A stretch of 64,000 bases of DNA, taken from contig CAVSIV010000001.1 of the NCBI GenBank assembly GCA_963728205.1, positions 1,120,001-1,184,000 of the forward strand, read 5' to 3'. The notes beneath the pieces were generated by a model, which saw only the letters and a program-made list of their open reading frames with translations, had not been told where the DNA came from and searched no databases. Of the stretch, positions 21,767 to 60,118 are shown one piece after another. The DNA comes from an uncultured Chloroflexia bacterium. Its GTDB lineage: Bacteria > Chloroflexota > Dehalococcoidia > UBA2979. The position numbers were made by a program, and so were the translations under genes. Each line of letters starts with the position of its first letter. Position 1 is the stretch's first letter.

Positions 21767-22124
21767 GGGGACGACAGGATTCGACAGGTGCGCACGGACG
21801 CGGATTGCGGGTCGAGGTGCCATCACCCTCGTAAATCAGGTGGCAAAAAGTAACTGGCGAAACTCAACTCGCCCTCGCTGCTTAATTAAGTAGCGACGTG
21901 GCGCATGGTCTCCTCCCGACGGGCCATGTGCCGCGACGTTTAGTCGGGATGCTCGGCGCAGGTGGGCTGCAGGCCTGCGTTCGAAAAGATCACTGCCGCT
22001 GGCCACACTCGCCCTCGGTCGACGGAGGGGCTGTGGCGAGATAAACATCCGCCGGCTACACCCGTAGTAGATTCGCGACGCACGTACGCTGGACGGGGAG
22101 TTCGATTCTCCCCCGTCTCCACCA
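21767..22124 (+). ncRNA. ssrA: tmRNA; tag (A)GETQLALAA at 21856-21885
   Basis: 5' GGGGACGACAGGATTCGAC; 3' T-arm GTTCGATTC and ...TCTCCACCA; tag ORF ending LAA-TAA; adjacent to smpB. Confidence 0.95.
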
Positions 22125-23589: not shown

Positions 23590-23790
23590 CCCCACTCCCC
23601 TGCCCGCGCGCCTGCCGTTCGCGTTCCCAGATCGCGCGCGCCACCCGAGCATATTCCCGGCAAAGATACTCGAGGGCGGGCGGCAGCTCCGCCGTCCGCC
23701 CGGCCCGGCGCCGGCCTCGCCCCGTCGCGCGAGGCCGTGACCCCGCCCGAGGCGACTCATTATGTCGCGTAGCCCGGTCCACGCCCAGCC

Positions 23791-23991
23791 CTACCCGGCC
23801 GCCCTGTCGTCAGGGATGCCTGCGGCGCGGAGCCGTTCTTCGAGCGCCGCGCGCGGTACTCGGATAAGCCGGCCAAGCCGAACCGAGGGAATCTCACCTC
23901 GGGCCACGAGCTCGTAGGCGAGGTTGCGCCCGATGCGGAGCAGCTTCGCCGCCTCGGGCACCGTCAGCAACGTTCCAGCGTCGTCCATCAT
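23791..23991 (-). CDS. Excisionase-like HTH_17 protein
   Basis: LLTVPEAAKLLRIGRNLAYELVARGEIPSVRLGRLIRVP. Confidence 0.88.
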   Translation of the reverse strand: MMDDAGTLLTVPEAAKLLRIGRNLAYELVARGEIPSVRLGRLIRVPRAALEERLRAAGIPDDRAAG

Positions 23992-24022
23992 GCTTCCTCG
24001 CTTCGTCGTGCGCGCGCGTGCG

Positions 24023-28297: not shown

Positions 28298-29336
28298 CGC
28301 GCTGCCTCCCCTCTGCCTCGTCGAGCAACCGGAAGAAGGTGTCGCGTCCGTCCGGGTGGACGCCCAGCTCGCTGGGGTCCTTCACGCCGTCCGGTAGGGA
28401 GACGATCCGTGCGCGCTCGCCGAGCGCGGTCGCCAACTGCGCCGCGGCCTCGCGCCCCGCGTCGTCGGCGTCGAGCACGAGCACGACGGAGCGCGCGCGG
28501 CCGAGCAGCCGCAGCGTGTCGCGGCCCGGCTGTGTGCCGAGCAGCGCGCAGGCCGGGAGTCCCCAGCTCACCAGCGTGAGCCAGTCGAACGGTCCCTCGG
28601 TGACGAAGACGCGAGCATGGCCGCGGGCGCGGTCGTAGCCGAGCAGCGGCCGCGGAAGCGAGAGGCCGCGGTACCGCGGCTGGCGGCGGCCGTCGAGCGC
28701 GCGGCCGACCATCCACCCGCAGTGCGCGCCGCGGAGGTCCGGTACGACCACCCGCTCGGCCATCGTCTCGGCGTCCGAGCGGAAGAGCAGGCCGAGCTCG
28801 CGCGCGCGGTGCAGCGAGAGGCGCCGGCGCCGCAGGTACGGCACGAGCAGGCGCCCGTCGCTGTATCCGACACGGCAACGTCGGGCGACCCACTCGGGGA
28901 TCCCGCGGGTCTCGAGGTAGGTCAGGATCCCGGGCGTGCGCAGCAGCGTCTCGTGGTAGAGCTCGCAGGCCGCCGTGAGGATCAGGCGGTCGTCGAGCGA
29001 GAGGCGCCGGGGCGCGGCCTCCGGCGGCGGGGCTGTCGGCGCGGGCGCGGCTTGCGCCGCCGTCGCCGATTCACCGCCGAGCCGCTCCACGGCCTCCCGG
29101 AACCCGATGCCTCGGCGCGGCGCACGAAGTCGATCACGTCGCCGCCGGCGCCGCAGCCGAAGCAGTGGAACGACTGCGTCTCGGGATACACGGCGAGGCT
29201 CGGGCGAGCGGTCCTCGTGGAACGGGCAGCGCCCGACCAGGCGGCGGCCCTGCGGACGCAGCCGCACGCCGTGCTGCTCGGCGACCGCGGCGATGGGTTG
29301 GCGGCGCTTGAGCTCGTCGAGGTCGACGCGGCTCAC
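28278..29336 (-). CDS. DNA primase (CHC2 zinc finger + TOPRIM), copy 1, compensating frameshifts
   Basis: GRCPFH...[15 protein letters not shown]; VTEGPFDWL; LDADDAG; GVKDPSE. Confidence 0.85.
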
Positions 29337-31141: not shown

Positions 31142-31817
31142 GGCCGGCCTCCAGCGCGCGCCGGGGGCTCAGCACGACGGCGCCGGCCGACGGGCGCTCC
31201 ACGTGCGTGGGGACGGAGGCGGCGCCGAGCGCGTCGCGCCACAGCGTGATGAGCGCGTTGGCGTCGAGCCGCTCCGTCGAGACCCCGAAGGCCACGAGCG
31301 CCTGCGCCACCTCGTTGCAGCGGAACGCCAGCCGGCGGCGCGCGGCGACGAGATCGCTCTGCGCGTGCCGGGCGCTCCGGCGCCGCCAGGGGAGCGGGGT
31401 CCCGCGGCGCTCCGCCCCGGTGTCGGCGCCGGCCGGCACGATCACGTAGAAGCGGCGATCGAGGAGCGTGCGCTCGCGCGCGATCCGCCGCACGAACGTC
31501 CGATGGTCCCGTGCCAGCGACGCGAGCGCCTCGTTCTCGGTCGGCCCCGCAAGGCCGTCGAGGTAGGCCTCGACGTCGGTCGGCACCACGCGCACGAGCA
31601 CCTGCAGCGGGTACGTGAGCGCGTTGAGGAAGCGGCGGTAGCCGGCGACGATCGCCTCCTGCTCGGCTTCTGCCTTGAGCGCGAAGTTGACGCTGCCGGC
31701 GCGGAGCACGGCGCGGTAGTCGCCGCCGCGCAGGCGCACGACGTCGCCTTCAATCTCGTCGAGCGGCAGCAACTCCTGCGCGCTCGCCGGTCGCCGTCGG
31801 CTATTGCGTGGATGCAT
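31134..31817 (-). CDS. VirB4/PrgI-associated conjugation protein
   Basis: DYRAVL...SVNFALK...EQEAI..Y..FLNAL..PLQV; RRFYVIVP. Confidence 0.7.
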   Translation of the reverse strand: MHPRNSRRRPASAQELLPLDEIEGDVVRLRGGDYRAVLRAGSVNFALKAEAEQEAIVAGYRRFLNALTYPLQVLVRVVPTDVEAYLDGLAGPTENEALASLARDHRTFVRRIARERTLLDRRFYVIVPAGADTGAERRGTPLPWRRRSARHAQSDLVAARRRLAFRCNEVAQALVAFGVSTERLDANALITLWRDALGAASVPTHVERPSAGAVVLSPRRALEAGRA

Positions 31818-32202
31818 CTGTATCTCCTTTCGCCGCGTGCCCGGAGTCAGCGGTCGACCGAATCGGCTCCCGCAGCACGACCTCCTGCGGTTCATGCGTC
31901 AGGCCGCGCACGTCGCGCGGCCGCCACACGGCGACACGCGGCATCGCGAAGTAGCGCAGCAGCACGAACGCCCAGTCCTCGAGGGGGCGCCCGGCGGGCT
32001 GCCAGAGCACGAGCACCGCCGTGGCGACGGTCGCGAGCGCGGCGGCCACGAGCCGCGCGCCGAGCGGCAGCGGCAGGTTGCTCACCGCGCTGTAGGCGAG
32101 CGTCAGGCCGACCGCGGCGGAGAGGAGCTGCCGCATCGTGAGGCCGGCGAAGGCGCGGTCGGCGACGTTGAGATGGGTGGGGATCTCGTGGCGGCCGCTC
32201 AC
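31801..32202 (-). CDS. PrgI-family (VirB3-like) protein
   Basis: HEIPTHLNVADRAFAGLTMRQ, two TMs, GRPLEDW. Confidence 0.8.
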   Translation of the reverse strand: MSGRHEIPTHLNVADRAFAGLTMRQLLSAAVGLTLAYSAVSNLPLPLGARLVAAALATVATAVLVLWQPAGRPLEDWAFVLLRYFAMPRVAVWRPRDVRGLTHEPQEVVLREPIRSTADSGHAAKGDTDASTQ

Positions 32203-32429
32203 GTGATCGCCCCCTTCACGACGCCGGCGATCGCGCGCGCGAGCAGCACGATCACGAGTCCGGTGAGCGCGTTGACGATCGCGGACTTCGCCGACTCCGC
32301 CTGGCGCGGCGAGCCCGACGCCGCCATGTACATGAAGGCGCCCCACATCACGAAGAAGGCCGAGACCGCCACCGCGATGCCGGTGCCGATGTCGATCAGG
32401 TTCGTGAAGAGCGTGTTGATCTGGTCCAT
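32199..32429 (-). CDS. TrbC/VirB2-like pilin
   Basis: 76 aa, two hydrophobic helices, WGAFMYM..SG.P...ESAK.AI.NAL.GL. Confidence 0.75.
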   Translation of the reverse strand: MDQINTLFTNLIDIGTGIAVAVSAFFVMWGAFMYMAASGSPRQAESAKSAIVNALTGLVIVLLARAIAGVVKGAIT

Positions 32430-32441
32430 CTGGTTCTCCGA

Positions 32442-32966
32442 TCAGCGGCCGCCGGATGCGGCCACGGCAGGTTGCTGTCCCAGCAGCTGGAAGTCGGCGA
32501 CGAGCCAGCGCCCATCCGTGCGAACGAGCCCGAGGCTCACGTCCTGCGTCACTTGCTGGTGGACGAGCGCGCCGGACGCCGGGTCGCGCCACTCCCGGTC
32601 CTGGGTGGAGCGCACGGTTGCCGCCGCGTTGCCTCCCGACAGCGCGGTGACCGTGACCGACTCGACGCGCGAGGAGCTCGTGCGCTCGGCGGCGATGGCG
32701 GCGGGATCGACCGCGGCTTTCGCGACGGCGTGCTGGAGGTCGCCGGTGCTCAGGTCCGCGAGCCGCGCCGCGTACGCGCCGGCGTCCCGGAAGTCGAAGT
32801 TGCCGTACGCGGCGACGAAGGAGCGGGCCGCGGCCTCGACGGCTGCACGGTCGTCCCGGCGCGCGGCGAGCCCCGACGCGCCGCTCCAGCCCGACGCGGC
32901 CGCGATCGCGAGCAGCACCGCCGCGATCGCGAGCAGCGCGTACGCGGCGCCTCGCCCGCGGATCAC
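32442..32966 (-). CDS. Bitopic NTF2-like (VirB8-like) protein
   Basis: N-terminal TM; AARSFV.AY..FD; LVRTDGRWLV. Confidence 0.55.
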   Translation of the reverse strand: MIRGRGAAYALLAIAAVLLAIAAASGWSGASGLAARRDDRAAVEAAARSFVAAYGNFDFRDAGAYAARLADLSTGDLQHAVAKAAVDPAAIAAERTSSSRVESVTVTALSGGNAAATVRSTQDREWRDPASGALVHQQVTQDVSLGLVRTDGRWLVADFQLLGQQPAVAASGGR

Positions 32967-33555
32967 GGGGCCACCGCCACGGGCGACGGCCGGGAGGACC
33001 CGGCCACGGGCGTCGGCGTCGCGCCGGCGCCCGCGTACAGGCTCGCGCGTGCCAGCACGGTGCGCGACGTACGACCACGAGTGGTTGTAGGCGTAGACCG
33101 CGCCGGGGAGGTCGGTCGCCGCGCCCGCCGCGGCGAGCAGCCGCGCCATCGCCGGGATCGCGTCGCGGAAGTCGTACGGATCGCCGCCCCGTCCAAACAG
33201 CGCCCACGTCGACGGCAGGAACTGCCCGTAGCCGACGGCGCCTGCCGACGAGGTCGCCATGTTGGCGCCAAAGCCGCTCTCCACCGAGGCAATCGCCGCG
33301 AGCACCGGCCACGGGACGCCGGTCTCTGCGCTCGCGTCTTGCATCACCGCGAGCTGCGCGGACGGGATCGCGGGCGCCGACGTCGCGTGCGCGCCCGGGA
33401 TGCCGGGGATCAGCGACGCGACGAACGCGGCGATCGCGATCACGACCAGCAGCACGGGGACGAGCACGACCCCGGCCAGGGCGCCGGACGAGGCGGAGCC
33501 CCGCGCGCGGCAGGTCCCCGAGGACAGATGCGGCGACGAGCGTGGCCTGCAGCAT
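32963..33555 (-). CDS. Lytic transglycosylase (VirB1-like), frameshifted
   Basis: VPWPVLAAIASVES, SSAGAVGYGQFLPSTW, AVYAYNHS. Confidence 0.8.
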
Positions 33556-33557
33556 CG

Positions 33558-34732
33558 TCACGCTCCCCCCGCGCCCGCGGCGCCTGCGCCGCCGGAGCCC
33601 AGCCCACCGACGAAGCGGCTGAGGACCACGAGCGAGACGACGTTGCGCGAGGCCCGCGTGGCGCACCTGCCCGTGCAGGAGCGTGGGCACCTTGAGCGTC
33701 AGCCACGCGACGGCCATCCCCAGCATCAGCGTGAGCAGCGCGTTCGAGACGCTGCCGGGCGTGAGCTCGACCATCAGCGCGGCGCCGAGGCGCAGCACGG
33801 CCACCTGCACCGCCTGCTGGAAGACCGTGATCCCGAAGAGGTGCGCCCACCAGCGCGTCCACCCCTGGGTCTGGGGCAGCACCCAGAGCAGCACCATCAC
33901 GGGCGACAGCACGATCAGCACGTCCAGCAGCGCGAGCCGCATCAGCATCTGGAACACGAGCAGCAGCGCGACCACGACGTAGGCGATCGCGACGATCACG
34001 AGCGCGATCCCCTGCTGCTCGACGCCGGCCTGGTCGTAGCCGGGCAGCCCGACCTGCCCGACGCCGCCGGCGAAGGCGTTGTTCATGTCGATGAGGACGT
34101 GCGCGAGCTCGAGCGTGAGGTTGACGGCGAGCGCGGCGAGCAGCACGCGCGGCAGCAGCTCCATCACGCCGTGGTAGGGAGCGCGGATGTGGTCCTTCAC
34201 GACGACGTTGAAGCCGCCCCACATCACGACCAGCGCGAGGCCGGCGTTCGCGAGGGCGCGGCCGAAGTCCCAGAGCGTGCGGACGGTGCTGCTCTCGTAG
34301 GTGCCCGCGGCCGGCGTCCGCGTGACGAAGTTGAGCGACGAGCCGCCGAGGCCCATCGCCCAGTCGATGAAGCCGCGCATCGCCCCGCAGCAGCGCGCGC
34401 CCCAGCGCCGTGACGACGCCGTCGAGGATATCGCCCGCCCACTGGCGAGGATCGAGTCCGCTCAGCAGGCCGCCCGGGTTGGGCATGTTCGGCCCGGCGG
34501 CAGGGGCGGTGTTCACCCGGCTGGCGGAGAAGGGGGTCGCCGTGGAAGCCGCTGCCGGCGTCGGCGCCGCGTTCGCGGCGACGCTCGGCCGCGTCGGAGC
34601 GACCAGGGGCGCGCCCGCGCCGATGAGGGCAGCGAGCGCGTCCGGTGCCTGCTGGGCGCGGGCGGGTGCGACGAACACGAACCAGCAGACGAGGGCGGCG
34701 CAGACGCCGAGCAGCGGACCTCGCACGACCAA
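33558..34732 (-). CDS. VirB6/TrbL-like polytopic membrane protein, frameshifted
   Basis: Signal peptide, multiple TMs, LLPR.LLA..AVN, R...L.VL..LSP...LPQT..W. Confidence 0.7.
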
Positions 34733-34789: not shown

Positions 34790-34881
34790 AGCGTCGCGTC
34801 ATGAGGTCCAACTCAAGTCCAAGATCGCACCCAGATCGCACCAATCCATACCAAGATCAGTCCAAGATCGCACCAACGCGC
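34790..34881 (-). promoter_or_regulatory. 11-bp-phased direct-repeat array plus -10-like box for conjugation operon
   Basis: Seven units ~(A/T)CCAAGATCGC on + strand at 34807-34881; GAC-N10-GACGCT on coding strand. Confidence 0.7.
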
Positions 34882-43994: not shown

Positions 43995-44020
43995 AGCGAC
44001 GACATAAGCGGCACCGTCGC

Positions 44021-44497
44021 TCAGCGGAGCAAGGCGACGACGCCCCCGAGCGCGAGCCAGGGCGCGTATGCGATGAGGATCCTGGCGCGCTCCCGGCGGA
44101 GGACCAGGATGATGCTCGCGGCGATGCCCCCTGCGATCGCGGTTACGATGCCGGCGACGACGATGCCGCGTATCCCCACCACCGCGCCCACGAGCGCTGC
44201 CATCTTTACGTCGCCCCCACCGAGCCCGCCCCGACTCAGCCCGCGGATGAGCAAGGCGACGCAGAACGCGATGAAGGCAGCGGCCACGCTCGCCAGGAGA
44301 TCACCGTGTGGTCGCACTACCGAGAATACGAGCGCGAGGACGATCGCCGGATAGACAACAGCGTTCGGGATCCGCTGGTAGCGCAGGTCGCACCACGCGA
44401 GCCACACGAGGCCCCCGCCGAACAACACGATCGCCGCGGTCTTCCAAGGGTCTCCGCTCGCGGAGGCCTCGAGCATCTTCAGCGCGCTACTCGCCAT
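44021..44497 (-). CDS. Prepilin peptidase A24 (TadV/CpaA-like)
   Basis: CDLRYQRIPN and GLGGGDVK catalytic Asp motifs; IAYAPWL. Confidence 0.88.
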   Translation of the reverse strand: MASSALKMLEASASGDPWKTAAIVLFGGGLVWLAWCDLRYQRIPNAVVYPAIVLALVFSVVRPHGDLLASVAAAFIAFCVALLIRGLSRGGLGGGDVKMAALVGAVVGIRGIVVAGIVTAIAGGIAASIILVLRRERARILIAYAPWLALGGVVALLR

Positions 44498-47400
44498 CCC
44501 GCTCGCCGTTCAACAGCTGCGCGAGCAGTTCGCTCGTCTCTGGCGACGGCGCCGCGCCGGGGTCGTCGAGCTCGCGCTGGACCGCCTCCGACAGTGCTCG
44601 GTAGGCCTTGCGTGCGCCGGCGAGATCCCCGTCGTCCGCGAGGGAGCGCATCAGCCTGCGTGTCGTCCCCTCGTCGATTGGCTCGACCGCCAGGATCGCG
44701 CGGTAGAGCCCGGCGGCGCGGTCATGCATGCCGAGGCGCTCCGCGATCACGGCGCCCTTCCGCGCGGCCTCGAACAGCTGACCTCGATACGTCTGGCGGT
44801 AGTCATCGACCCAGCTGAAGAACTCGCCGCCGAGGAAATCGCCCTCGTACAGGCTGACGGCGCGTTCGTACTCGGCCAGCGCCTCGGCGTCCCGCAGGTA
44901 GGCCGCGCGCCTGATCGCACCGTCGAAGACGTCGAGATCGACGTCGAACTCCTCCGCTGCGAGGTGCATGCGTTGCTTGACGACGACAACCGACCGGAGC
45001 CGCTTGTTCCCTGACGCCTTGCGCAAGGTGGAGCGGAGCATGCTCACCGCGTTCGACATCAAGTGTCTCGTGCTCGCATCCCAGCTGTAGTCCGGCCACA
45101 GCGCTTCGACGACCTGCTCGCGCCCCACCCACTGACCGCCATGAGCGAGCAGGAACGCCAGCAGTTCCCGCGCCTTGAACAGCGTCCATTGCTCGACGGG
45201 TTCGTCCCCGGCGAAGACCGCGAAGCGGCCCAGGCACTGCACGCGGATACTCGCCTCCGAGCTCGCTACGTCCGTGGCCTCTCCGCTGGCCTCACCTCGT
45301 CCAAAGAGCGCCGCCTGCCTCGCGCCCGCGAGCCTCGGCCCGGGCGCGGCTTCTGCCCCAGGGCGACTCTCGCTGCCGACTTCCGCGGCCGTTGCGGCCG
45401 TCGCGACGAGTTCATCCCTCGGCTCGCTGTCGTTCCCGCAAGACGCCTCACTGCACGGGGGCTCGTCGGCCACGAGCTCTTCGCCCAGCGCTGCTTCGCC
45501 GTCCGCGCGCTCCGCCAACTCGCGGCTGTCGGGAGTCGCGTCGTGGGAGCCACCGTCGGCCGTCCGATGGAGTTTCAGGCGTCGGTTGGTGCAGATCCGG
45601 AGCGTCGCCAGCCAGCGTGACGCCGGCGGGTCTGCGCGCCCTCCTCGCCTGGTTGGCGGGCTTCCTCACTGCTCGCCTCTGCCCTCACGTCGCAGTCGTC
45701 GCGGTCCGCTTCGTCGGGCCCCGTGTCGATCCACCGGGTCCTCTGAACTCGGGGCCGATGACCCGTCCGGTGGCGTGCTGCTTCCTGACTCGGGTTCCGG
45801 CTTGACCGTCGACGTCGCGCCATCGCTCCTGGTCGCTAGCAGGCGCCAGCTCGGGCGGCCACAGCGCCCAGCGGCTCTGCGCCGGCCGCGAGGCGCGGCG
45901 ACGCATCGCGGCGGACGGCGACGGGATGAAGGAGCAGCGGCTGCTCGCGACCGAGGGTGAGCGCGATCGGTCCGGCCTCCTCGTCGGCCGTCTCGTCTTC
46001 GGCTTCGTCGTCGGACGTGCGGAAGTTCACGGCGGCCCGCCAGATCGACGCACGCGCTGCCGCTTCCTCGGCTGGCACACTCACCACCGCGAACACGTCG
46101 GCTCGTGACGCGTCGCTCAGCACCGCCTCGAGCGCGGCATCGCGGTCCGCGGGCGGAGCATGCGACCACGACGAGCGGCCGGTCCCCGCCGCCACTCCCC
46201 CGCGATCGCACGAGCTCGCTGAGCTCTTCGACGAGCTCGCTGGCATCGATAGGCGGCGCCCCGCCGACGTGCGGCACGTCGGCCGCTTCGCCGAGAAGCG
46301 CTGCGGCGCCCGTGTCCAGGCGGACGCTCAGCTCCTGCGGCTGATGCGTCGTGGTGAGCGTGGCGAGCCAGGCTCGCAGGAGCTGGCGGCGTTCGAATCT
46401 CGCTGCCGGCGACCGCGACGGTGCCGGCCGCAGCGAGGTTCAGGTACACCGGCCCGTCTCGTCGGCTCCGACGGGTACGACGAGCGCGGCCGGGCCACCG
46501 CCTCCGAGCCCCTCGTCGAGCATCGCCGCGAGCCGCTGGAACCCGTCGACCGTGAGCGCCGCCTGCGTCCGCCCAATCACCTCGGCGTCAATCTCGCAGC
46601 GCAGTCGGCGTTCGAGGTCGTGGCGCTGGCCGACGAGCGCCTCGGCGTCTCCGTCCGGGCACTCCACCGTGAACTCGAGCCGGCTGCCCGCCTCGTGCAC
46701 GAGCAGCGGCCGCGCCCTGGCGAACCCGTAATCAGCGAGCGCGCGGGCGACCGCCCGGGTCGCGAGCGTCACGCGTCCGGCGTCACCCGCGCCTCCGCGT
46801 CCTCGGCCACGCAAGAGAGGCGCCCCCTCGCGCACGAGCCGCCGCACGAAGACCGCGGTGCCGCCGATGAGGATGAAGCCGGCGACGGACACGAGCACCG
46901 CGGGCGCGACCGATGGCCACTCCCAGCCCCGGCTGACATGCGCTTCCCCGCCACTCTGCGCGTGCGTCGCCCCGCCCGTCGCCCGTGAGCGCGTGGCGAC
47001 TTCTGCGGTAGCGGTCGGAGTGGGACTGCGCGCCGGCGCGACGTCGTTCGGCGACGCGCTCGTCACGTTCGCGGGCAGATCGAGCGTCCACCCCGGGAAG
47101 ATGAGGTTCGGATCCGTGAAGCGGCGGCCGTCGGGCATCTCGCGCCCGCGGTTGGCCTGCCAGATCTCCATCCAGCGGAAGCCGTCGCCGAGGAACCGCG
47201 CAGCGACGCCCCATAGGCTGTCGCCCGGGCGCACGCGGTAAGTGGTCGCGGCGGCGGCCGTGCTGACGTTCCCCGCGGGTAGCGGCAGGCGGAGCACCCA
47301 TCCCGGCTGGATCAGTCGCGGGTCGTCGAACCGCTCGCCGTCCGGCATGAGGCGGCCGCGGTTCGTCTCGACGATGTCGACGAACCGGCTGCCGTCGCCG

Positions 47401-48026
47401 TACACGCGTCGGGCGATGTCCCAGAGGAAGTCGCCGCGCGCCACGGTGTAGTCGAGGAAGCGTGGCTGTTGCGAGAGTTGCGCGTCGCTTTCGGCCAGCG
47501 GCAAACGCCCGACGGCACCGCCCGTGGCGCCAGCGCCAGCGTGGCCGAGATCGTCGTCGGCGCCGGCGCGGCGGTTGCGCGCGGCGCCGTTGGTGCCCAG
47601 CTGGCGACGAGGAGAGTCGCCGCGACTCCGCCGTCCACCAAGCGCCTCACTGCCGGAATCGTCACCAGCTCGCTCAGACTGCATCCCGACGCGCGCCCAG
47701 CTCGCGCCACCACTCAGCGCGTCGAGCGTCGCGACCACGAATCGCAGCGCGGTGGTCAGTGCGAGGTATCCGAGCGCGAGCCACGCAATCGTCGTCGCGA
47801 CCGTGATGATGTCCGCGTCGCTGAGCTGGGAGCCGGCCAGGACGTGACGGATGTACTGCCAGTCCGGCGGGGCGGCGGCGAACCGCGGTGTCCCGGTCAT
47901 CCTCCAGAGGCCGAGGGCGAGCAGCGACGCCAGGGCGAGCAGCGTCACCATGCCCAGCGCGCTCGCGGCTCTCGGGGCCGGGTCCGCCGTTCGCATGGAC
48001 GGGTGCTGCCTATGCGTAGTCGCCAT
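44487..48026 (-). CDS. Transmembrane LysM-LysM...wHTH-BTAD (SARP-like) protein, split by frameshifts
   Basis: N-terminal TMs; two LysM (YTVARGDFLWDIA...LIQPGWVL; YRVRPGDSLWGVA...LIFPGWTL); TM; VVPVG..YLNL..AG domain; LGRF.V, KARELLAFL, EALWP, VDLD.F, LY.GDFL, EP.DE, PSPET. Confidence 0.75.
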
Positions 48027-48045: not shown

Positions 48046-48965
48046 CTACCGCGCGGCGGTCAGCACTGACTGCACCTGCTGGACCGGGTAGTCGCGCGCG
48101 AACGACCGCGAGACGGAGGCGAGCGGTGCCCAGGAGCCACCATTGACGCGGTAACGCGCGCTGAACGTGATCTCGAGCCGCACCGTGTAGGCGCCGCTCG
48201 CGGCCAGCGAGGACTGCTCATACGTGTGTCGAATGTCGCTCTCAGCCGGATAGGCCTGGCCGAGCGATTGGGTGGCGAGCGTCGCCCCGTCGCCGAAGCT
48301 CCACTGGTAGCTCTGCGGCGCGATCTCGACCTCCACCGTCGTAAGACCGAGCGTGCGCGATCCACGCAGCCCTGAGCCGTCGTAGCCCTCGACCCAGAAC
48401 CACGAGGGCATCGCGACGAGCCCGGTCGTCGGGTTCATGCCGACTTGGATCGGCGGGAGCGGCACGATCCCGAAGACGGAGTCCACGAGCGTCGCGGGAT
48501 CAACGGCCGGCGCCGGCCCCGCGACCTCCGAGACGCTCGGTGTAGTCGCGCCGGTCGGGACCCACGCGATGCCCGCCGTACCGTCGGTACAGCTCACGAA
48601 CCACGGCGTGCTATTTGGGTGCGCATCCGCGCCCTGCCGGAACCAGTGCGTGTCCGCGATGCCGATGTTCATCGGCGCTGCGTCGCACGCCGGTCCTTGC
48701 GTGCCGTTGACCCGTTGCGTGGAGCCGCCATCGGCGTGGCGCCCGGGCCGTGTGCTGGCTTGTTGGATGTAGATCGTCACGCCGTCGATCCGCTCGCCAC
48801 ATGAATCCGCCCTTGGTTGGCGCCAGGAGTTCCGCCGAGCCGATTTGTAGGGGCCGTCTGCAGCAGCGGTCTGCGATCACCAGTGCCATCGCCAGCACCC
48901 CGAGCGCACGAGCCTGCGAGCCGACCGGCGGCGCGCGGCACTCACTCCTCGCGCACGCTGCCTAG
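48046..48965 (-). CDS. Secreted Tad-associated protein with PKD-like C-terminus, frameshifted
   Basis: P..GLV..P.WFWV, YQWSFGDG, HTY..SS, W. Confidence 0.6.
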
Positions 48966-49532
48966 GAGTCGACCTTCCAGAGGCCATCGACCTCGGACGA
49001 GCTTGAAGGTGTCCCGCAGCGACTGCGCTGACTTCCGATTGCCAGTCGGAGGGTTCTTCGTGACCGCGTCGACACGTAGCTGTTGTTCACGTATTGGTCG
49101 ATGACCGTCGGCGCTGTCCTCCGGCAACCTCGAGGCCACTGACGGAAGTCGTGCTTGACGACGACGCGCATCGGCGACGCCCTGACCTGCGCAGAGTCGC
49201 GAATCTCGTCGAGCGATCCGCTGGAGGCGCGTCTCCGGTCAGCTACCGCGTGGACGGTGCGAGCCATCGAGATCGGAGCAAGGCGCTGCTGTAGGCGCCC
49301 CAGTAGGCGAGGTACGCCCGCGAGACGCCGCGCGGAGCTCGTCGACCGTCGGAGTTCCCGTCGATGCCGGCATGTCGGCGGGTTCTGGCGTCGGCGGTAC
49401 GCGAGGCCGTAGGAGTCGTCGCACTCGCTTCACCGTCGGGCGTGCATCGCCCCCACCGCAACCCGCGATGATCGCGCACATGACTGCGACCACGACCAGC
49501 ACGACCCATGAGCGAGTGCGGCGCATCGACAT
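48962..49532 (-). CDS. Tad-associated lipoprotein, frameshifted
   Basis: Lipobox IAGC; AYLAYW; LV.G.WKV C-terminal NTF2-like strand. Confidence 0.55.
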
Positions 49533-49534
49533 CG

Positions 49535-49973
49535 CTACCGTCCCGTCGTGATCCCGGCACGCGGCCGCGCGCTCGCCTGCGCCTCAATCGACACGCCGTC
49601 GATGCCGAGCACGCGCAGGAATGCGGTGTGCGCCGAGCGCTTCACGTCGACGATGACGCCGTCCGCCGTCGCGTCGATCGCGTAGTCGGCGGTGCTCGTG
49701 GCGAGGTAGTCCGTGGCAGCCGCGCGCGCCGCTGCCGGGTCGAGCACGACGTTCGAGCCGTTCGATGCGCGGTAGGCGTCCTGGTCGATCTGCATGGCAC
49801 CCGCGGCCGCCGCGGCGTCCGCGAGGCCCTGCAGATCCCGCCGCTGCACGAGCACCATGCCTCCGTCCGCGACCAGGCCCGCGACGGCCACGAGCCCGAG
49901 CATGAAGATCGCTACGAGCACCATCGCCTGGCCCGCGCTCCTCCCGGTGCAGTCCTTTCAGCCATCGGGTCAC
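49535..49973 (-). CDS. TadG/TadE-like pseudopilin (frameshift near 5' end)
   Basis: GQAMVL...GLVADGG...LQGLADAAA.AGA. Confidence 0.78.
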
Positions 49974-50419
49974 GGCGCCGCCGCCGTCCGGCTGCGATAG
50001 AGGTCGACGCGCTCGGCCTGCGTGCTCGACACCGTCACAGCGAGCGTCCCGAGCAGCGGCAGGTCGCCCAGTCCCACCCGGTAGGATGCGCCCGCGCTCA
50101 CCGTCCCTCCCCTCGCAAAGCTGCCGGCGTCGATAGTGAGCCCGACCTGGTCGGGCGAGAGCCCATAGCCGCCGGCGACCTCCCGCGCTCGTGCCTGTGC
50201 CGCGTCGATGCCATCCGCTGCGGACGCGGAGGTCGCGAGCGTCCGCGCCGCCTCGCGCGCGACCGCGTGCACGCCAATCTCCGCCCGCGCCACGCGCCCG
50301 ACCATGACGACGACGAACGCGATCACGAGCACGACGGGGAGCACGAGCGCGGCCTCCACGAGCGCGCCCCCGGACTCGTCGGCGAGCATCCGCCGCAGCG
50401 CGGTGAGGTCATGGACCAC
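49970..50419 (-). CDS. TadE-like pseudopilin
   Basis: DESG/GALVEAALVLP...AREAAR. Confidence 0.82.
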   Translation of the reverse strand: MVHDLTALRRMLADESGGALVEAALVLPVVLVIAFVVVMVGRVARAEIGVHAVAREAARTLATSASAADGIDAAQARAREVAGGYGLSPDQVGLTIDAGSFARGGTVSAGASYRVGLGDLPLLGTLAVTVSSTQAERVDLYRSRTAAAP

Positions 50420-50832
50420 TGCGGAATCCCTCCTTGCGCACCTCCGACGTCGCGTCAGATCGGGATCGCCAGCCTCGTCACCCACGGGATGAAGAGCGGG
50501 TACGTGCCGCGCGCCTGCGTCACCACGACGTCCCCGCGGTCTTCGGTCGTGACCGTGAACGCTCCGCTCGTCGCGCCGAGCCCGGCCTGGAGCACCGACT
50601 GCGTGCGCGTCGCGCCGTCGGTGAGCGAGCCGCCGTCGGCCGCGGCGATGCGCGAGCCCTCGGCGGCGGCGGTCGCCGCGACGTTCTCGGCGTGCTGCAC
50701 GAGCGCGAACTGCACTGCGCCGAGCAGCGCGATCAGCAGGACCGGCAGCGCGATCGCGAGCTCGACCGTGCTCGCGCCCGACTCGTCGCGCAGCCAGCCC
50801 GCGCGCCTAGATGCTGCCGAGCGCCGTGACAA
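50409..50832 (-). CDS. TadE-like pseudopilin (start uncertain, frameshift near 3' end)
   Basis: DESG/ASTVELAIALP...AAEGSRIAA. Confidence 0.8.
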
Positions 50833-50992
50833 TGTTGCCGAACACTCCGGCGATCGTCGTGCCGAGCGTCTGCACGGCGGCCAGGGCCACGACCGCGATC
50901 AGCGCGGTGACGATCGCGTACTCGACCATCTCCGCCCCTCGTTCGTCTCGGTGGAGTGCGCGCGCTGCCGCCAGAACCAGCTCGAGCATCAC
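50807..50992 (-). CDS. flp: Flp type IVb pilin
   Basis: DERG/AEMVEYAIVTALIAV Flp motif; strong GAGGAG RBS. Confidence 0.9.
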   Translation of the reverse strand: MMLELVLAAARALHRDERGAEMVEYAIVTALIAVVALAAVQTLGTTIAGVFGNIVTALGSI

Positions 50993-51018
50993 GTCCTCCT
51001 CTCCTCGTCACATGGGTT

Positions 51019-51957
51019 TCAGCGCAGGCCGAGCAGCTCCACCCCGGCGGGGTAGAGCAGCACGACCAGGAACACCGGGAAGATGAAGAGCGCGACCGGG
51101 AACAGCATGCGCACCGCCCCCTTGCCGCCCTCCTCGATGAGGTCTGTGCGCCGTCGCTCGCGCACGGTCTCCGCGAGCGCGAGCATCGCCGGCGCGAGTG
51201 GGAGCCCCTGCGCGTAGGCGAGGCGCCACGCATCGGCGAGCGAGCGCAGCTCCGCGATCCCCTCGCGCTCGGCCAGCGCCTGCAGTCCGTCGGCGTAGCT
51301 GCCGGTCCCGAGCCCCGCCTCGCGGACCACGCCGCGCAGCGCGTCGCCCAGCACGCCGGTGAGCTGCCGGCCGGCCTCGACGAGCGCCTGCTCCGGCGAG
51401 AGCCCCGCGCTGGCCGCGATCACGAAGAGGTCGAGCGCGACCGGCAGCTCCGCGCCGATCGCCCGGCGGCGCTCGCGCAGGCGGTCGTGCAGCATCCAGC
51501 TCGGGGCCGCGAAGCCCGCCACGAACCCGCCGGCCCACCACCACACGGGCCAGGTGCCGAAGGGGTGCACGCCGAGCAGGTTCATCGCGGGGAACGCCGC
51601 CGCCGACCACGGCGCCGCACGCCGCCTGCTGCCCGCGGAACTGTGCCGGCCGTCGTCCCCGGCCAGGCGAGCGCGAGGCGACGATCGAGGTCGCCGGCCT
51701 CGAAGCCGAGGCGGCCGGTCACGCGCACGAGCAAGGCGCCGGCGTCGTCGAGCACGGGCCGCAGCACGCGCTCGAGCAGCGGCGAGCGGAAGCGCGGCGG
51801 CCGCGCGGCGGCCTGCGTCGAGCTCCATCCGGCCCTGCGCCGAGAGCCGCCGCAGCCGCTCCTCGAGCGCCGGGCGCGGCCGCCCCAGCGGCTGCGCCAT
51901 CACGAGCAGCCACAGCCCGGCGCCGAGCGCGCCGCTGAGCAGGAGCGCCGGGGTCAC
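51019..51957 (-). CDS. tadC: TadC (T2SS F domain), frameshifted
   Basis: ELP.ALDL....SAGLS..QAL, G.PL...L, MLFPV..FIFP. Confidence 0.82.
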   Translation of the reverse strand: MTPALLLSGALGAGLWLLVMAQPLGRPRPALEERLRRLSAQGRMELDAGRRAAAALPLAAARARAAARARRRRRLARARDRPPRLRGRRPRSSPRARLAGDDGRHSSAGSRRRAAPWSAAAFPAMNLLGVHPFGTWPVWWWAGGFVAGFAAPSWMLHDRLRERRRAIGAELPVALDLFVIAASAGLSPEQALVEAGRQLTGVLGDALRGVVREAGLGTGSYADGLQALAEREGIAELRSLADAWRLAYAQGLPLAPAMLALAETVRERRRTDLIEEGGKGAVRMLFPVALFIFPVFLVVLLYPAGVELLGLR

Positions 51958-52809
51958 CGGAGCACCCGCCAATCGGTGGGCAGCGCCGCCGCCCGGCGCA
52001 TCAGCGCGTAGCCGGCCGCCACGCTCAGCAGGCAGAGCGCGAGCACCGCCTGCCCCCCGGGGGACGAGAAGACGTCGAGGTAGCCGGGGTTGCTGGCGCG
52101 GATCGTCACGATCAGCACGAGCGGCAGCGCCGCGATCACCCGCGCCGAGAGCACGTGCTGCGCCTGCTGGGCGCGCACCTCGCGCCGCACCTGCAGGCTC
52201 GCGCGCACCGAGCGCCCGAGGCCGTCGAGCACCGCCGCGAGGTTGCGGCCGCCAAGCCGGTAGGCGGTGAGCAGGGCCGCGACCAGCACGTCGAAAAGCG
52301 GGTCGGCCACCCGGTCACGCGTGCGCCGCGCCGCCTCCTCGAATCCCGAGAGGCGGGCGTCGCGCTCCATCGCCTGGAACTCGCGCCGGAGCGCCGCGGG
52401 GCCGGTGCGCCCGAGCGCGTGGATCGCCTCCTCGAGCCCCAGTCCCACGCGCACGGCGTCGCGCAGCGCGGCGACGGCCTCGCCGACGGCTTCCTCGACC
52501 TCGGCGCGCTCCCGCGCCGCGCGCTGGCCGAAGTACCAGGAGGGGAGCCCCAGCCCGACCGCGGTCGCGGCGAGCGTCACCACGGGCCAGCCGAAGCACG
52601 CCTGTGCGATAGCGCCGGCGACCGTGCCACTGGCTGCGCTCGCCAGCGCGAGCTCGCGCAGGCCCACACCGGGGACCGCCCGAGCGCGCCAGCGCGTCGC
52701 GCAGCCGGCGGCGCGCCGCGTCTCGCTCGCCGCCGCCCCGCCGCCCGGTGGCGGCGAGGTAGATCAGCAGCACGCCGGCGCCGAAGGTCATGCTCAGCAG
52801 GACGTTCAC
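51954..52809 (-). CDS. tadB: TadB (T2SS F domain), frameshifted
   Basis: LRDAVRVG.GL.EA, GG.NL..VL, SARVIAALP, PGY...F....GQ. Confidence 0.82.
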
Positions 52810-52829
52810 GGCTCCCTCCTCAACGCCCC

Positions 52830-52942
52830 ATGGTCCCCGCGGCAGGTCCCAGTACGGTCCAAGACCGCACTCAGATCGCACCAATCGCTCCAAGATCGCG
52901 CCAGGATCGCACTCACCCGGCCAGGAACCCGCCGAAATCGCA
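52830..52942 (-). promoter_or_regulatory. 11-bp-phased direct-repeat array plus -10-like box, internal promoter of tadB
   Basis: Units TCCAAGACCGC, ACTCAGATCGC, TCCAAGATCGC, GCCAGGATCGC etc. at 52847-52942; GAC-N10-GACCAT on coding strand. Confidence 0.7.
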
Positions 52943-52951
52943 CGGCGCGCA

Positions 52952-54221
52952 TCAGCCGCCCCGCTCCGGGCCCGGGTAGCCGGCCGCGAGCAGCCGCGCC
53001 TCGCGGCGCGCGCGGATGCCCGTCCAGCGCAGCACCCCCTGGTCGAGCGCGAACAGCTCGTTGCCGGCCACGGCCTCGCCCTCCATGCCCGTGACCTCGT
53101 AGACGCTGGCCAGCACGCGGCGCCCCGACGGGGCGAGCTGCAGGTGCAGCACGAGCTGGATCGCCTCGGCAATCATCTCGGTGAGCGCCTGGGCGGGGAG
53201 CGCTTCCTCGGCCATCAGCGCATAGGTGCGCAGCTTCGTGAGCGCCTCGCGGGGGCCGTTGGCGTGGATCGTGCACATCGAGCCCTCGTGGCCCGAGTTC
53301 ATCGCGGTCAGCATGTCGAGCGCCTCGCCGCCGCGGACCTCGCCCACCACGATCCGGGTCGGCCGCATGCGCAGCGCGTTCTGGACGAGCGCGCGGATCG
53401 CGATCGCGCCGGCGCCCTCGACGTTCGCCGGGCGCGCCTGCAGCGCCACGCAGTCGGGCAGCACCGCCTCGAGCTGGAGCTCGGCCGTCTCCTCGATCGT
53501 CACGACGCGCTCCTCGAGCCCGGAGATCGCCGAGGCCGAGGGCGTTGAGGCAGGTGGTCTTGCCGCTGCCGGTGCCGCCGGAGATCAGCATGTTCAGCCC
53601 GGCGCGCACGGCCGCCTGGAGGAAGACCGCGGCCTCCGGGGGCAGCGTCTCCAGCGCGACCAGCTCGTCCAGCGAGCGCGCGCGCAGCAGGAACTTGCGG
53701 ATGGTGACGTGCGTGGCGCCCGAGGTGAGCGGCGCGATGACCGCGTTGAGGCGCGAGCCGTCGGCGAGCCGGGCGTCGACCATCGGGCTCGTCTCGTCGA
53801 GCCGGCGCCCCAGCGGCCCGATCGCGCGTCGCACGAGCTGCAGCAGCTCCGCGTCGTCCTCGAACACGACGTCGGAGAGGCGCTTGCGGCCGCCGGCGAT
53901 CGCGAACACGCGCTCGGGGCCGTTGACGATGATCTCCTCGACCTCGGGGTCGTCGAGCAGCGGCTGCAGCGGCCCCAGGCCGAGCAGGTCGTCGAGCACC
54001 CGGCGCACGAGCGCCTCGGGCTCCCCGACCGGCGGCTCGCCGAGCGTCGCGGCGCGACGATTCGCGGCGGCGATGCACTCGAGCACGAGCCGGCGCGCCG
54101 CCTCAAACTCCACGGGTCCGGGCGCGAGCAGCGCCTCGACGTCGAGGGTGCGCCGCAGCTCGGCCTGCACCTCGCCGCGGATCGCCCGCTCCCGGGCGTC
54201 GGCCGCCGCGAGCGTCACCAT
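52952..54221 (-). CDS. tadA: CpaF/TadA pilus ATPase (frameshift near 53535)
   Basis: [64 protein letters not shown]. Confidence 0.9.
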
Positions 54222-54222
54222 C

Positions 54223-55395
54223 TCAGTCGGCCCCCGCCAGCCGCGGCACGAGCGGCTCCGCCACCGCGTCGCGACGCGCGCACCGCCGCGAGGCCGTCGG
54301 GCAGCGCCCGCAGGTCGCGTGCCGCGCGCCCGCCGCACCGGGGCAGCGGGAGCTGCCGATCGATCGCTCGCCGCGCGGCCTTGCGGTCCTCGCGCACGAC
54401 CGCCACCACCGGCATGCCCAGCACGCGCTCGATCTCGTTCGCGGTCGTAGTGCTCGCGTCCCTCCAGGCGGTTCACGACGGCGGCGAACGCGGTCCCGTC
54501 GGGGACGTCGTCCGCGATCCACCGCAGTCCGACCCGCGCATTCCAGACGGAGACGAGAATCGGCGCCGGTCACGAGCAGCACCTCGTCCGCGCAGTCGAG
54601 CACGCTCAGGTCCGCCGGCACGCCGGTGTCGACGACCACCGTCTCGAAGCGCGCCCTGAGCGCGTTCAGCACCCCGGCGAGCAGGTCCCGGGCGCGTGCT
54701 GAGCGCCAGCTCGGGCCGCTCGAAGCCGGCGAGCACCGCGCACCCCGGGCCTTCCTGCAACTCGTCGGTCACCTGCGCGCCGGGCGCCGCGAGGCCCACG
54801 AGGCCGCGCCGCGGATCGAGGTCCAGGTGGGGCGCGACGTTCCCGGTGCGGAGGTCGGCATCGACGAGCGCGACCGACCCGCGCTCGCCCGCGAGCGAGG
54901 CGAGCGCGATGCGCGAGCGTCGTCTTGCCGGTCGAGCCCTTTCCGCTCACGACGGCGACGACACGGCCGCTGCCTTCGCGGTCTTCCCGCGTTCGCGGTT
55001 CGGCAGGCGGTGCGTCCGCCACGGTTGGCCGTGCACCGCGGCTCTCCGCAAGGCGAAGCGCCGACGCGATCTCCCCGCCGCTGGAGGTGGCCGGGAGGAC
55101 GCGCGCGAGGGACGCGAAGGCCTCCGCGTCCGCTCCCGGGGGCGTGAGCGCCACCACCGGCAGCCGGCGTTCGCGCAGCGCCGCGAGCGTCGCCGGGCTC
55201 AACTGGTGCAGGTCGGTAGAGACCAGCGCGACGTCCACGCCCGGCGCCCGCGCCTGCTCCAGCAGGTCGGCCGCGCTGAGGCAGCGGGTGACCACCGTGA
55301 CGCCCTCGCGCGGAAGCTCTCGCGCCAGCCGACGCTCGAGCGCGCGGTCGCCGACGGCGAGCAGCGCGCGGATCGCGAATCGCCTCGCCGCTCAT
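54223..55395 (-). CDS. CpaE/TadZ-like (receiver-like + MinD ATPase), frameshifted
   Basis: [27 protein letters not shown]. Confidence 0.75.
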
Positions 55396-56086
55396 CGTGC
55401 GTCCCCTGCGCGGCGGCTGCGAGCTGCGCAGCAGCGAGCGTGAGCTGCGCGTTCACGACCGCGTCGGCGAAGCGCTCGGCGTCCGCGCCAGGGATGAGGA
55501 GGGTCACGTTGCTGACGCGACCGCTCGCAGCGGCTGAGTCGTGCGCGCCGAGCGTCACGCTCGAGGTCGCGCGCGACACGTCGTAGACCGTCGCGTCGTC
55601 GAGCAGCGTGCTGCTCTGGCTCTGCGGCTGGCCCTTGTCGGTCGTCGCGACGACGGTCACGTGATCGCCCGGGTGGAGCGCCGGGTAGACCGTGTCGGCG
55701 TTCACCGGGACGGTGACCGCGAGCTGGTCGGCGCCGATGGTCGGGACCGAGCCCAGGTCGGGTCGCAGCACGAGCGCGCCGGCGGGGATGGCCTGCTGCG
55801 CGGTCTGCCCGACGAGCGCCGCCAGGTCGGGAGCGGCCACCGCCAGCGCGGCCGGCGGCCCGTCGAGCCGCGCCTGCGCCGTGGTCAGGTCGTCGCTGCT
55901 GATGACGTGCCCCGCCGGGATCGCGTGCGCCGCGATCACCACCGGCTGCGTGATCCGCGCCTGGTCCGCGAGGCGCACGCCGCCGATCACCGCGGCCGCG
56001 ACGAGCACCACGCCCACGAGGAGCCGCACGTCCACGTGCGGCAGCGCTGCCGTTCGCCATCGCCGCCCGGAGGTAGTGATCGCCAT
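55392..56086 (-). CDS. CpaB/RcpC SAF-domain protein (3' end approximate)
   Basis: TM then VVIAAH.IPAG..I..DDL, L.PGD.V.V, VTL. Confidence 0.82.
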
Positions 56087-56095
56087 CGCCCTGCC

Positions 56096-56412: not shown

Positions 56413-56639
56413 ACAGGTCTTCGCCGCACCGCCCTTCGCGGGTCGAACGGCGATCGCTCGAACGCCGACTCCCGACCGATCCGGATTCGCAACGGCGTCG
56501 CGCAACTTCGGCGCGAATTGAGACGGGTCTGCGATGCCGCCACCGCAACAACGCATGCAATGCGCGCGTTGGACGGAGCAGACGCAGGTCTGCCGCGTCG
56601 CCGAGACCGGCGGCGGCGCGGCGTGCGGGGGACCCTCCG

Positions 56640-57425
56640 GTGACCGCAGAGCCGAGCACAGCACCGCGGCCTGGCCGCCTTCAGCAGGCGCGTACCCCGC
56701 GCTGGCGCGTGTGCCTGCTCCCCGCCTTCGCCCTGCGGGCCGGGGAAGTTCCGGTCAAGGTGCCCGCGGCCGGGCGCCGCCTCGCCACTTTGCTCGCGCT
56801 CTACCCGGGACCGCTGACGGCACAGCAGGCGGCGTCGATGCTCTGGCCCCGCCTGTCCGAGCGCCAGGCAGCGTCGAGCCTGCGGACCGCGCGCTGGCGG
56901 GTGCGCGCAGCGAGCCCCTCGCTCCTCGTCGACGACCCGTCAGGGCTGCGGCTGCATCCCGACGTCACGGTGGACGCATGGGAGCTCGAAGCGCTCGCGC
57001 TCGACATGACCGAGCGTCCCGCGGACGTGATCGACACGGATCCGCGCCGGTTCGCGGCCGAGCTGCTGCCCGACTCCCGCGACGACTGGGTGCTCGCGCA
57101 GCACGCCCACCTCCGTGAGCTCTGCCTGCGCGCGGTCGAGGCGCAGGCGCGCCACTACCTCGCCTCGTCCGACTACGGCTCCGCGAGCAATGCCATCTAC
57201 GTGGCGATCACGATGGAGCCGGAGCGCGAGAGCGCTACGCGGACGCTGATGGAGATCGATCTCGCAGAGGGGAACCAGATCGACGCAGTGCGCGCCTATT
57301 TGCGCCTCGAACAGCGACTGGCGAGGGACGGCACCGCGCCGTCCAATGCGCTCCGCGCGCTCGTCGCACCGCTGCTCGACCAGCTCGCCCCCGGCGCGGC
57401 CGAGCGACTCTTGCGCTGGAGCTAA
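56640..57425 (+). CDS. SARP-like wHTH-BTAD transcriptional activator
   Basis: RL..LLAL, A.MLWP, SLRTA.WR, V.VD..E, ELLP...DDWV, EP.RESA...LM, PS. Confidence 0.82.
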   Translation: MTAEPSTAPRPGRLQQARTPRWRVCLLPAFALRAGEVPVKVPAAGRRLATLLALYPGPLTAQQAASMLWPRLSERQAASSLRTARWRVRAASPSLLVDDPSGLRLHPDVTVDAWELEALALDMTERPADVIDTDPRRFAAELLPDSRDDWVLAQHAHLRELCLRAVEAQARHYLASSDYGSASNAIYVAITMEPERESATRTLMEIDLAEGNQIDAVRAYLRLEQRLARDGTAPSNALRALVAPLLDQLAPGAAERLLRWS

Positions 57426-60042: not shown

Positions 60043-60118
60043 GTTGGCGCGAATCTGGATGGGTTGGCGCTATCTGGGTGCGATCTTGGACCGATCTGGG
60101 ACCTCCGCTGCGTAGCGT
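60043..60118 (+). promoter_or_regulatory. 11-bp-phased direct-repeat array plus -10 TAGCGT for rightward operon
   Basis: GCTATCTGGGT GCGATCTTGGA CCGATCTGGGA C; reverse complement of the 34807 and 52847 arrays; GAC-N10-TAGCGT. Confidence 0.7.

Follow-up and report, generated by a model that had tools for sequence, protein, structure and literature searches.

The LysM-SARP gene and its protein family

The stretch of DNA analysed here, called the window in the following, comprises 64,000 nucleotides (positions 1,120,001 to 1,184,000) of contig CAVSIV010000001.1 from an uncultured Chloroflexota bacterium of the class Dehalococcoidia. With a G+C content of about 70-75% it carries a Tad (Flp) pilus operon, the second-to-last gene of which is the subject of this work and is called the LysM-SARP gene, as it joins two LysM domains to an FtsK-like domain and to a C-terminal part resembling the SARP family of transcriptional activators. 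Its parts are the following:

44487..48026, minus strand: whole LysM / FtsK-like / SARP gene, broken by at least six frameshifts
47590..48026, minus strand: predicted N-terminal membrane module, membrane helices 1 and 2 clear (hydropathy of the family alignment, AlphaFold2 model of the homologue P0005, match to homologues)
47283..47453, minus strand: LysM domain 1, best NCBIfam stretch, residues 192-248
47073..47240, minus strand: LysM domain 2, best Pfam LysM stretch, residues 263-318
46845..46900, minus strand: predicted fourth membrane helix, between LysM (outside) and the cytoplasmic part (homologue alignment, hydropathy, AlphaFold2)
45905..46793, minus strand: FtsK/EccC-like domain without Walker A lysine, with three frameshifts and the apparent stop 46440-46442 inside
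45246..45904, minus strand: poorly conserved, probably disordered linker (predicted local distance difference test score, pLDDT, below 50 in P0005), with the apparent stop 45666-45668 and at least one frameshift
45000..45245, minus strand: OmpR-type winged helix-turn-helix (Pfam Trans_reg_C; Foldseek matches to AfsR and EmbR)
44511..44942, minus strand: BTAD (TPR-like) domain (Pfam BTAD)

An initial annotation, made from the DNA letters only, had placed one gene at these coordinates by joining frameshifted pieces, and the ends it gave could be confirmed by an ATG at 48026 and a stop codon at 44487-44489. One frame of the minus strand is open from 48059 to 44490 and interrupted by stops at 46440-46442 and 45666-45668, and a mechanical list of open reading frames (ORFs) holds one of 528 amino acids (46440-48026) and one of 343 amino acids (44487-45518). 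These pieces are parts of one gene because full-length database homologues of 1,083-1,199 amino acids cover the entire region in tblastn, changing frame on the way, and a homologue-guided reading of the minus strand from 44487 to 48026 yields a single protein of about 1,150 residues. Frameshift-aware protein-to-DNA alignments with three homologues (P0005, P0003, and P0001) agreed in all three cases on five shifts, at about 47680, 47475-47523, 46456-46462, about 46398, and 46151-46160. The poorly conserved linker from 45865 to 45513 requires two to four more frame steps, the positions of which vary with the homologue used, so that the gene contains at least six frameshifts of the one-base type, more than the ORF map implies. 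The 528-amino-acid ORF conceals a compensated pair of shifts (about 47680 and about 47500) by which the third membrane helix is scrambled into a charged stretch, this helix being readable only in the shifted frame between these two positions. The apparent stop at 46440-46442 falls into a shifted stretch of about 60 bases (46398-46460) which homologues read in another frame. Recoding of this stop was considered and rejected, as the homologous reading crosses it in that other frame. As written in the window, the gene cannot yield the full protein. As many of its neighbours are broken as well, functional claims must rest on intact relatives.

Such relatives bear out the joining of the pieces, the gene being an uninterrupted single ORF in six of seven Dehalococcoidia loci, and both LysM and BTAD being present in 61 of the first 70 long matches (973-1,287 amino acids). 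Named relatives are proteins from metagenome-assembled genomes (MAGs) of Chloroflexota, Dehalococcoidia, and Anaerolineae, labelled in two sources as SARP activator or YgaU/SARP. When profiles for three parts of the protein were compared with 120 long LysM proteins, the N-terminal module was recognised in 77, the central domain in 73, and the winged helix-turn-helix with BTAD in 107, the latter group taking in Streptomyces proteins in which Pfam sees only LysM. A library clustered at 50% identity held 1,861 proteins at E≤1e-30, and at least 47 of its best 150 representatives match the 1,114-position profile over its full length. In a genome scan 80 loci were listed, mostly generic LysM matches, among them nine full-length relatives, namely L001 to L007 from Dehalococcoidia MAGs, L019 from an Actinomycetota MAG, and L026 from Actinomadura. 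The family is thus a conserved, uncharacterised membrane protein of about 1,100 residues.

The domain list of the initial annotation proved to be correct. Pfam found LysM in two stretches of the piece 46443-48026 (E 2.1e-14), and in the piece 44490-45665 it found Trans_reg_C (E 3.2e-6, 27.6 bits, cut-off 26.2) and, directly after this winged helix, the BTAD domain over positions 1-146 of the 146-position profile (E 7.7e-15). The middle ORF pieces had no Pfam match. NCBIfam added only similarities of the LysM type and to the BagI/FevR SARPs, all below their cut-offs, and the FimV model was absent from the NCBIfam matches of the gene pieces. In the hydropathy profile of the family alignment strong hydrophobic segments are centred at 31, 77-92, and 391 in the numbering of P0005, and the mean count of lysines and arginines is 8.0 just after the last of these segments versus 1.1 just before it. 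P0005 was modelled with AlphaFold2 from a 52-sequence alignment (mean pLDDT 75.5, predicted template modelling score 0.44), which gave the following elements:

residues 24-44, 70-105, and 124-142: helices
residues 187-250 and 258-321: two LysM folds
residues 381-405: helix
residues 421-715: confident alpha/beta domain
residues 716-858: pLDDT below 50, linker of about 140 residues
residues 860-1115: confident C-terminal domain

The pLDDT exceeds 90 for the LysM folds and for residues 421-715 and 860-1115, and the linkers on either side of the LysM pair are short, with about 40 and about 55 disordered residues. A topology with the N-terminus inside and four membrane helices is predicted from these data, in which LysM would lie outside and everything beyond residue 405 inside. 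The charge step and the helix 381-405 thereby agree with the earlier proposal that LysM and BTAD are found on opposite sides of the membrane.

A Foldseek comparison of the P0005 model with the PDB yielded 54 matches at E≤0.001, which fall into two groups. The C-terminus matches AfsR (8k60 and 8hvr, both transcription initiation complexes) and EmbR (2ff4) with E of about 2e-10 and a target template modelling score of 0.5-0.7. Both hallmarks of a SARP, the OmpR-type winged helix and the BTAD domain right behind it, are present, and on the basis of the model the C-terminus has the SARP fold. The central domain matches the motor domains of FtsK (6t8b, 2ius, and 2iut) with E of about 3e-10, and in addition the coupling protein TcpA, EccC/EssC, and ATPases of the HerA/VirB4 type. 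A comparison of the family profile with PDB profiles pointed to EccC (4n1a and 4nh0, E 3e-4 and 7e-4), PF01580 scores above its cut-off at the same place in four distant relatives, and the Atlas look-alikes, taken as a lead only, are FtsK_SpoIIIE clusters with scores of 0.83 and 0.81. At the aligned Walker A site G-K-[ST] occurs in none of the 120 long LysM proteins, the window reading ...AGSE..RRQ... at this position. The sole match to the pattern anywhere in these proteins is at residue 814 of P0116, which has no match to the central-domain profile. The Walker B position is non-acidic in the closest group. As the P-loop lysine is absent, the domain would have no means to hydrolyse ATP and would not be a motor. 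The model thus presents the central domain as an FtsK-like fold of a dead ATPase, most like the inactive domains of EccC/EssC. A search with the central domain alone brought up no other architecture, all 21 matches having LysM and BTAD. While a cytoplasmic domain had been noted in the initial annotation, its FtsK/EccC-like fold without the Walker A lysine had been missed, and the recognition of this fold from the model is new here.

Repeat arrays in front of the operons

Three arrays of direct repeats with a period of 11 bp are found in the window:

34800..34876, minus strand: array A, immediately before the trbL-like gene that opens the type IV secretion block
52859..52912, minus strand: array B, in the gap between cpaF and tadB, upstream of the genes from tadB through LysM-SARP
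60065..60103, plus strand: array C, with the same repeat units, upstream of genes without Pfam match

Tandem Repeats Finder reported them with period 11 at 34819-34876 (5.4 copies), 52859-52912 (5.1 copies), and 60072-60103 (2.9 copies), and when placed in register the three arrays have a mean column identity of 69%. No such array stands in front of cpaB in the window. The genes on the plus strand which array C faces include one for a long, probably helical protein rich in alanine, arginine, and glutamate (reading frame 60639-62291).

The arrays of the relatives consist of locus-specific units which share a TTGG, TGGG, or TTAG start and are spaced at 11, 22, or 33 bp (within 2 bp, with a few irregular ones). 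They occur in the gap between cpaF and tadB in five of the seven Dehalococcoidia relatives (L001, L004, L005, L006, and L007), L003 having no gap there, and upstream of the trbL-like gene in all four relatives with this gene in range, the one in L007 being weak (a different unit, 2.1 copies). A conserved TAnnCC hexamer stands 20-21 bases after the start of the last unit of the trbL arrays in the window, L001, and L003, a feature less evident in L005 and L007. Behind the array, each of these five loci has a GGAAGG-like ribosome site followed by a start codon. That repeat arrays precede the operons, as had been claimed for the window, is hence seen in the window and in its relatives. The positive feedback on the LysM-SARP gene that had been suggested is possible as well, because array B lies upstream of it on the same strand and no minus-strand terminator is predicted in between.

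Generic scans largely failed to bring out these features, and the arrays were therefore called by Tandem Repeats Finder, by locus-specific core motifs, and by inspection. With a generic self-match criterion at lag 11 (31 of 44) no locus gave a signal, and in a scan for k-mer clusters GC-rich repeats dominated the output. Strong peaks of a phased k-mer-pair score were restricted to array A, the gap of L004, and a CTGACCG microsatellite of L006; elsewhere this score was no better than at other lags. This long CTGACCG-type microsatellite (L006:1791-1955) has a period of 7-8 bp, lies directly upstream of cpaB, and has nothing to do with the 11-bp arrays. Allowing at most one mismatch, the strict pattern TGGNNCGATCT matched the window 23 times versus 16.9 times expected, a number reached in 7 of 100 shuffles, so it is not enriched overall and only the clustering of its matches at the three arrays is striking.

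A proposed membrane-tethered activator and its alternatives

It is proposed, with a probability of roughly one half, that the LysM-SARP protein is a membrane-tethered one-component SARP activator which acts on the operons of the surrounding mobile element through the candidate arrays. Direct repeats phased at 11 bp beside a -10 element are the binding mode of activators of the SARP/OmpR type, and it is because of this binding mode and of their co-occurrence with the gene that the arrays are assigned to the protein. According to the proposed mechanism the SARP heads would bind the 11-bp-period arrays, which would stand in for the -35 region. The targets would be the trbL-like/type IV secretion operon, the sub-operon from tadB to the prepilin peptidase gene, which includes the gene itself, so that autoregulation would be positive, and one more unit at about 60.07 kb. 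LysM would couple the activity or the position of the protein to peptidoglycan, and the dead ATPase domain may serve oligomerisation or docking. A bolder version, which must be regarded as quite unlikely in its entirety, has the FtsK-like domain assemble into a ring, as happens with FtsK and EccC, which would present about six SARP heads on long flexible linkers to arrays of 5-7 units, so that promoters would be fired at the membrane beside a wall-anchored machine. In this version wall changes sensed by LysM, caused by remodelling through the element's SLT/NlpC hydrolases or by contact, would be turned into expression of transfer genes, and the family would be a new class of wall-coupled oligomeric SARPs common to mobile elements of Chloroflexota and Actinomycetota.

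Comparison with known systems places the protein between several classes. With SARPs such as AfsR and EmbR, a family of activators to which ActII-ORF4 and DnrI also belong, it shares the OmpR-type winged helix followed by BTAD and, as candidates, 11-bp direct repeats in place of a -35 element. Unlike in these proteins, the SARP module here is the C-terminal quarter of a protein with four predicted membrane helices, LysM, and an FtsK-like domain, and whereas SARPs are known from antibiotic gene clusters, the context here is formed by the pilus and transfer genes of a mobile element, with arrays of 5-7 units. The likeness to ToxR drawn in the initial annotation holds in principle, since ToxR, TcpP, and CadC also combine in one polypeptide a sensor outside the cytoplasm with a membrane span and an OmpR-type DNA-binding domain inside, as is predicted here. 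In these proteins the DNA-binding domain is N-terminal and the membrane helix single, however, while here the winged helix is found C-terminally at about 860-960 of about 1,115 residues, four helices are predicted, and about 450 residues separate the membrane from the DNA-binding part. The comparison with PDB profiles demonstrated no sequence relationship to proteins of the ToxR/TcpP/CadC type, CadC being a weak match only (E 0.12). FtsK/SpoIIIE, TcpA, EccC/EssC, and TraB of Streptomyces share the central fold, the membrane anchoring, and a context of DNA transfer. The translocases FtsK, SpoIIIE, and TraB differ by the Walker A motif G-x-x-G-x-G-K-[ST], which the LysM-SARP protein lacks. FimV/HubP have LysM outside, a TPR-like domain inside, and a link to a type IV filament system in common with it, but FimV has neither a winged helix nor an FtsK-like domain. 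Like LysM peptidoglycan-binding proteins, the protein has two LysM stretches which are predicted to lie outside the membrane, and its peptidoglycan binding is putative.

An occurrence of LysM-BTAD genes at actinobacterial tad loci had also been brought forward, which is real for plasmids, while the relatives found here are mainly from Chloroflexota (Dehalococcoidia). Table 2 of a 2013 paper lists "LysM, BTAD" for PAGK_2369, located behind tadE genes on a Cutibacterium acnes plasmid, and names it TadB (PMC3666418). To the extent of that table it shares with the LysM-SARP gene the position behind tadE and the domain pair, the likeness being one of automatic domain labels. Plasmids of this kind are described as carrying tad plus VirB4/TcpC/FtsK-like genes (PMC5696575, 2017). 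The table of 2013 is the one previous listing of the LysM-BTAD pair found in the literature searched. A LysM protein of 1,144 amino acids follows the TadE/G genes on the linear plasmid NZ_CP108666 of Streptomyces globisporus, and the Tad operon on a Chlorohelix plasmid is likewise closed by a large LysM protein.

Several observations weigh against the proposed activator. The gene in the window carries its at least six frameshifts, and in L004, a short-read MAG, an in-frame TGA (L004:10688-10690) stands at a conserved arginine/glutamine codon in LysM1. The third membrane helix is only weakly hydrophobic in the family alignment and yet is required for LysM to be outside. L002 possesses the gene, yet its gap between cpaF and tadB showed no repeat unit, and five intergenic gaps inspected at the Streptomyces plasmid locus showed no arrays. 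The separation of the arrays from background by generic lag-11 statistics was not clean, and a match between the similarity of recognition helices and that of repeat units (L004 and L006) is confounded by relatedness. In full-text searches of the literature no functional study and no DNA-binding, topology, or expression data were found for any member of the family. Finally, the element holds two further regulators which might bind the arrays:

56601..57422, plus strand: small soluble SARP-like regulator, divergent from cpaB
35128-36669, minus strand: LuxR/GerE-type regulator, in a low-coding stretch

Activation of the arrays by the LysM-SARP protein, as first suggested, is therefore plausible for a membrane-tethered SARP, with these two as alternative binders. 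If one of them were the true ligand of the arrays, the LysM-SARP protein would have other targets or would titrate or antagonise the other regulator, a reading that is judged improbable. The small SARP gene is found divergent from cpaB in the window and in L002, L003, and L007, and its product and the C-terminal module are distant paralogues (E 4e-4 at 27% identity). The end of the LuxR-type gene is 250 bases from array A, on its upstream side. In L004, L005, and L006, however, arrays are present without a small SARP within 10 kb on either side, the LysM-SARP protein being the only one with winged helix-turn-helix and BTAD found in this range; L001, where the upstream flank ends inside cpaE, was left out of this comparison. 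LuxR/GerE proteins usually bind inverted repeats, unlike the direct repeats with 11-bp phasing seen here, which counts against the LuxR-type protein.

A structural or anchoring role in the Tad/type IV secretion machine, in place of one as a transcription factor, is likewise unlikely for the protein. LysM would then fix the machine in the wall, the FtsK-like domain would form a ring or dock on the ATPases of the machine, and the winged helix-turn-helix with BTAD would hold the DNA of the element at the repeats in the manner of TraB and clt or would be a TPR-like scaffold similar to that of FimV/HubP. Streptomyces TraB does bind clt repeats and the cell wall, and FimV, with its LysM-membrane helix-TPR layout, belongs to type IV pili. 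Such a role would suit a conserved late gene of a pilus operon, located between minor pilins and the prepilin peptidase, and a central fold like that of FtsK, of the coupling protein TcpA, and of EccC, as well as the conservation of LysM and the N-terminal module beyond the regulatory part (N-terminal 77, central 73, and C-terminal 107 of 120). On the other side, no member examined has a P-loop lysine and hence none would be a translocase, the arrays mark the beginnings of three operons, followed by hexamer, ribosome site, and start codon, and are not gathered at one site resembling a transfer origin, and the C-terminus matches SARP activators which have been seen in complexes with RNA polymerase. 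The most far-reaching idea of the initial annotation was that a recipient cell is drawn in by the Tad pilus as it retracts, that LysM detects the peptidoglycan of this cell, and that the contact switches on the arrays. Nothing was found in its support beyond the general architecture and the co-location with Tad and transfer genes, and none of the results concerns recipients. At the outer face of the membrane LysM would be immersed in the cell's own wall and meet this first, nothing was found by which self could be told from non-self, and the linkers flanking LysM are short (about 40 and about 55 disordered residues), which makes recipient sensing very unlikely.

To our knowledge the control of pilus and transfer genes in conjugative elements of single-membrane bacteria other than Firmicutes, such as Chloroflexota and Actinomycetota, is largely unknown. 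The family provides a testable candidate in which a wall-binding ectodomain would be joined to a SARP activator, with recognisable candidate operator arrays at operon starts. If the proposed activator is borne out, it would be the first demonstrated case of a SARP acting from the membrane, and one more in which an ATPase domain of the FtsK type has been adopted as a module without catalytic function.

The surrounding element and its frameshifts

The remaining features of the element are these:

44021..44497, minus strand: prepilin peptidase (A24), last gene of the Tad block, overlapping the end of the LysM-SARP gene by 11 bases
48046..56095, minus strand: Tad operon with cpaB, cpaE, cpaF, tadB, tadC, flp, two tadE, tadG-like, small ORF, and PKD-like gene, several of them frameshifted
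21767..34717, minus strand: rest of the element, with serine recombinase, relaxase-like protein (Replic_Relax), coupling protein, primase, VirB4-like protein, type IV secretion system pilin, SLT, and trbL-like gene
21767-22124, plus strand: tmRNA gene, integration site, where the element directly starts
38146-38709: IstB fragment, in the low-coding stretch
41835-42500: partial copy of DNA from the virB4 region (30695-31365), 80-87% identical
43279-43821: methyltransferase, in the low-coding stretch, which also holds a DUF433 ORF

The Tad operon sits inside an element of the conjugative type integrated beside the tmRNA gene. To the left of the element lie housekeeping genes and SmpB, followed by the tmRNA. 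At this border (21767-23790) the gene of a large serine recombinase runs on the minus strand toward the tmRNA gene. No copy of the tmRNA 3' end was found at the far end of the element within the window. The relatives keep the order Tad operon, LysM-SARP, prepilin peptidase, and trbL-like/type IV secretion genes. Tad genes are found upstream in all six relatives scanned with Pfam, and TrbL, pilin, and VirB4 downstream in four of these. From 34900 to 44020, between array A and the prepilin peptidase gene, the window has about 9 kb of mostly non-coding DNA of lower G+C content, in a place where L001 has about 2.7 kb.

Compared with the proteins of relatives, the genes of the element contain the following numbers of frameshifts:

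LysM-SARP: at least 6
cpaE: 4
tadC: 3
coupling protein: 3
trbL-like: 2
primase: 2
cpaF: 1
tadB: 1
virB4, cpaB, and PKD-like gene: 0

Complete Pfam matches in single ORFs were obtained for nine chromosomal genes (about 14 kb in total) within 1-21.7 kb, and the frameshifts are therefore specific to the element (25790-55400). All of them behave as single-base events. Such shifts would fit errors of the consensus in a poorly covered or heterogeneous region, whereas the insertion sequence fragment, the partial duplication, and the junk insertion would fit a decaying element; the chances of the two explanations are about even.

Two smaller observations concern the Tad operon. The gene preceding LysM-SARP (48046-48876) has a weak match to a PKD domain, its counterparts in the relatives having about 300 amino acids and no Pfam match there. 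Just upstream of cpaB, at about 56099-56318 on the minus strand, lies a small conserved ORF which is present in L007 too.

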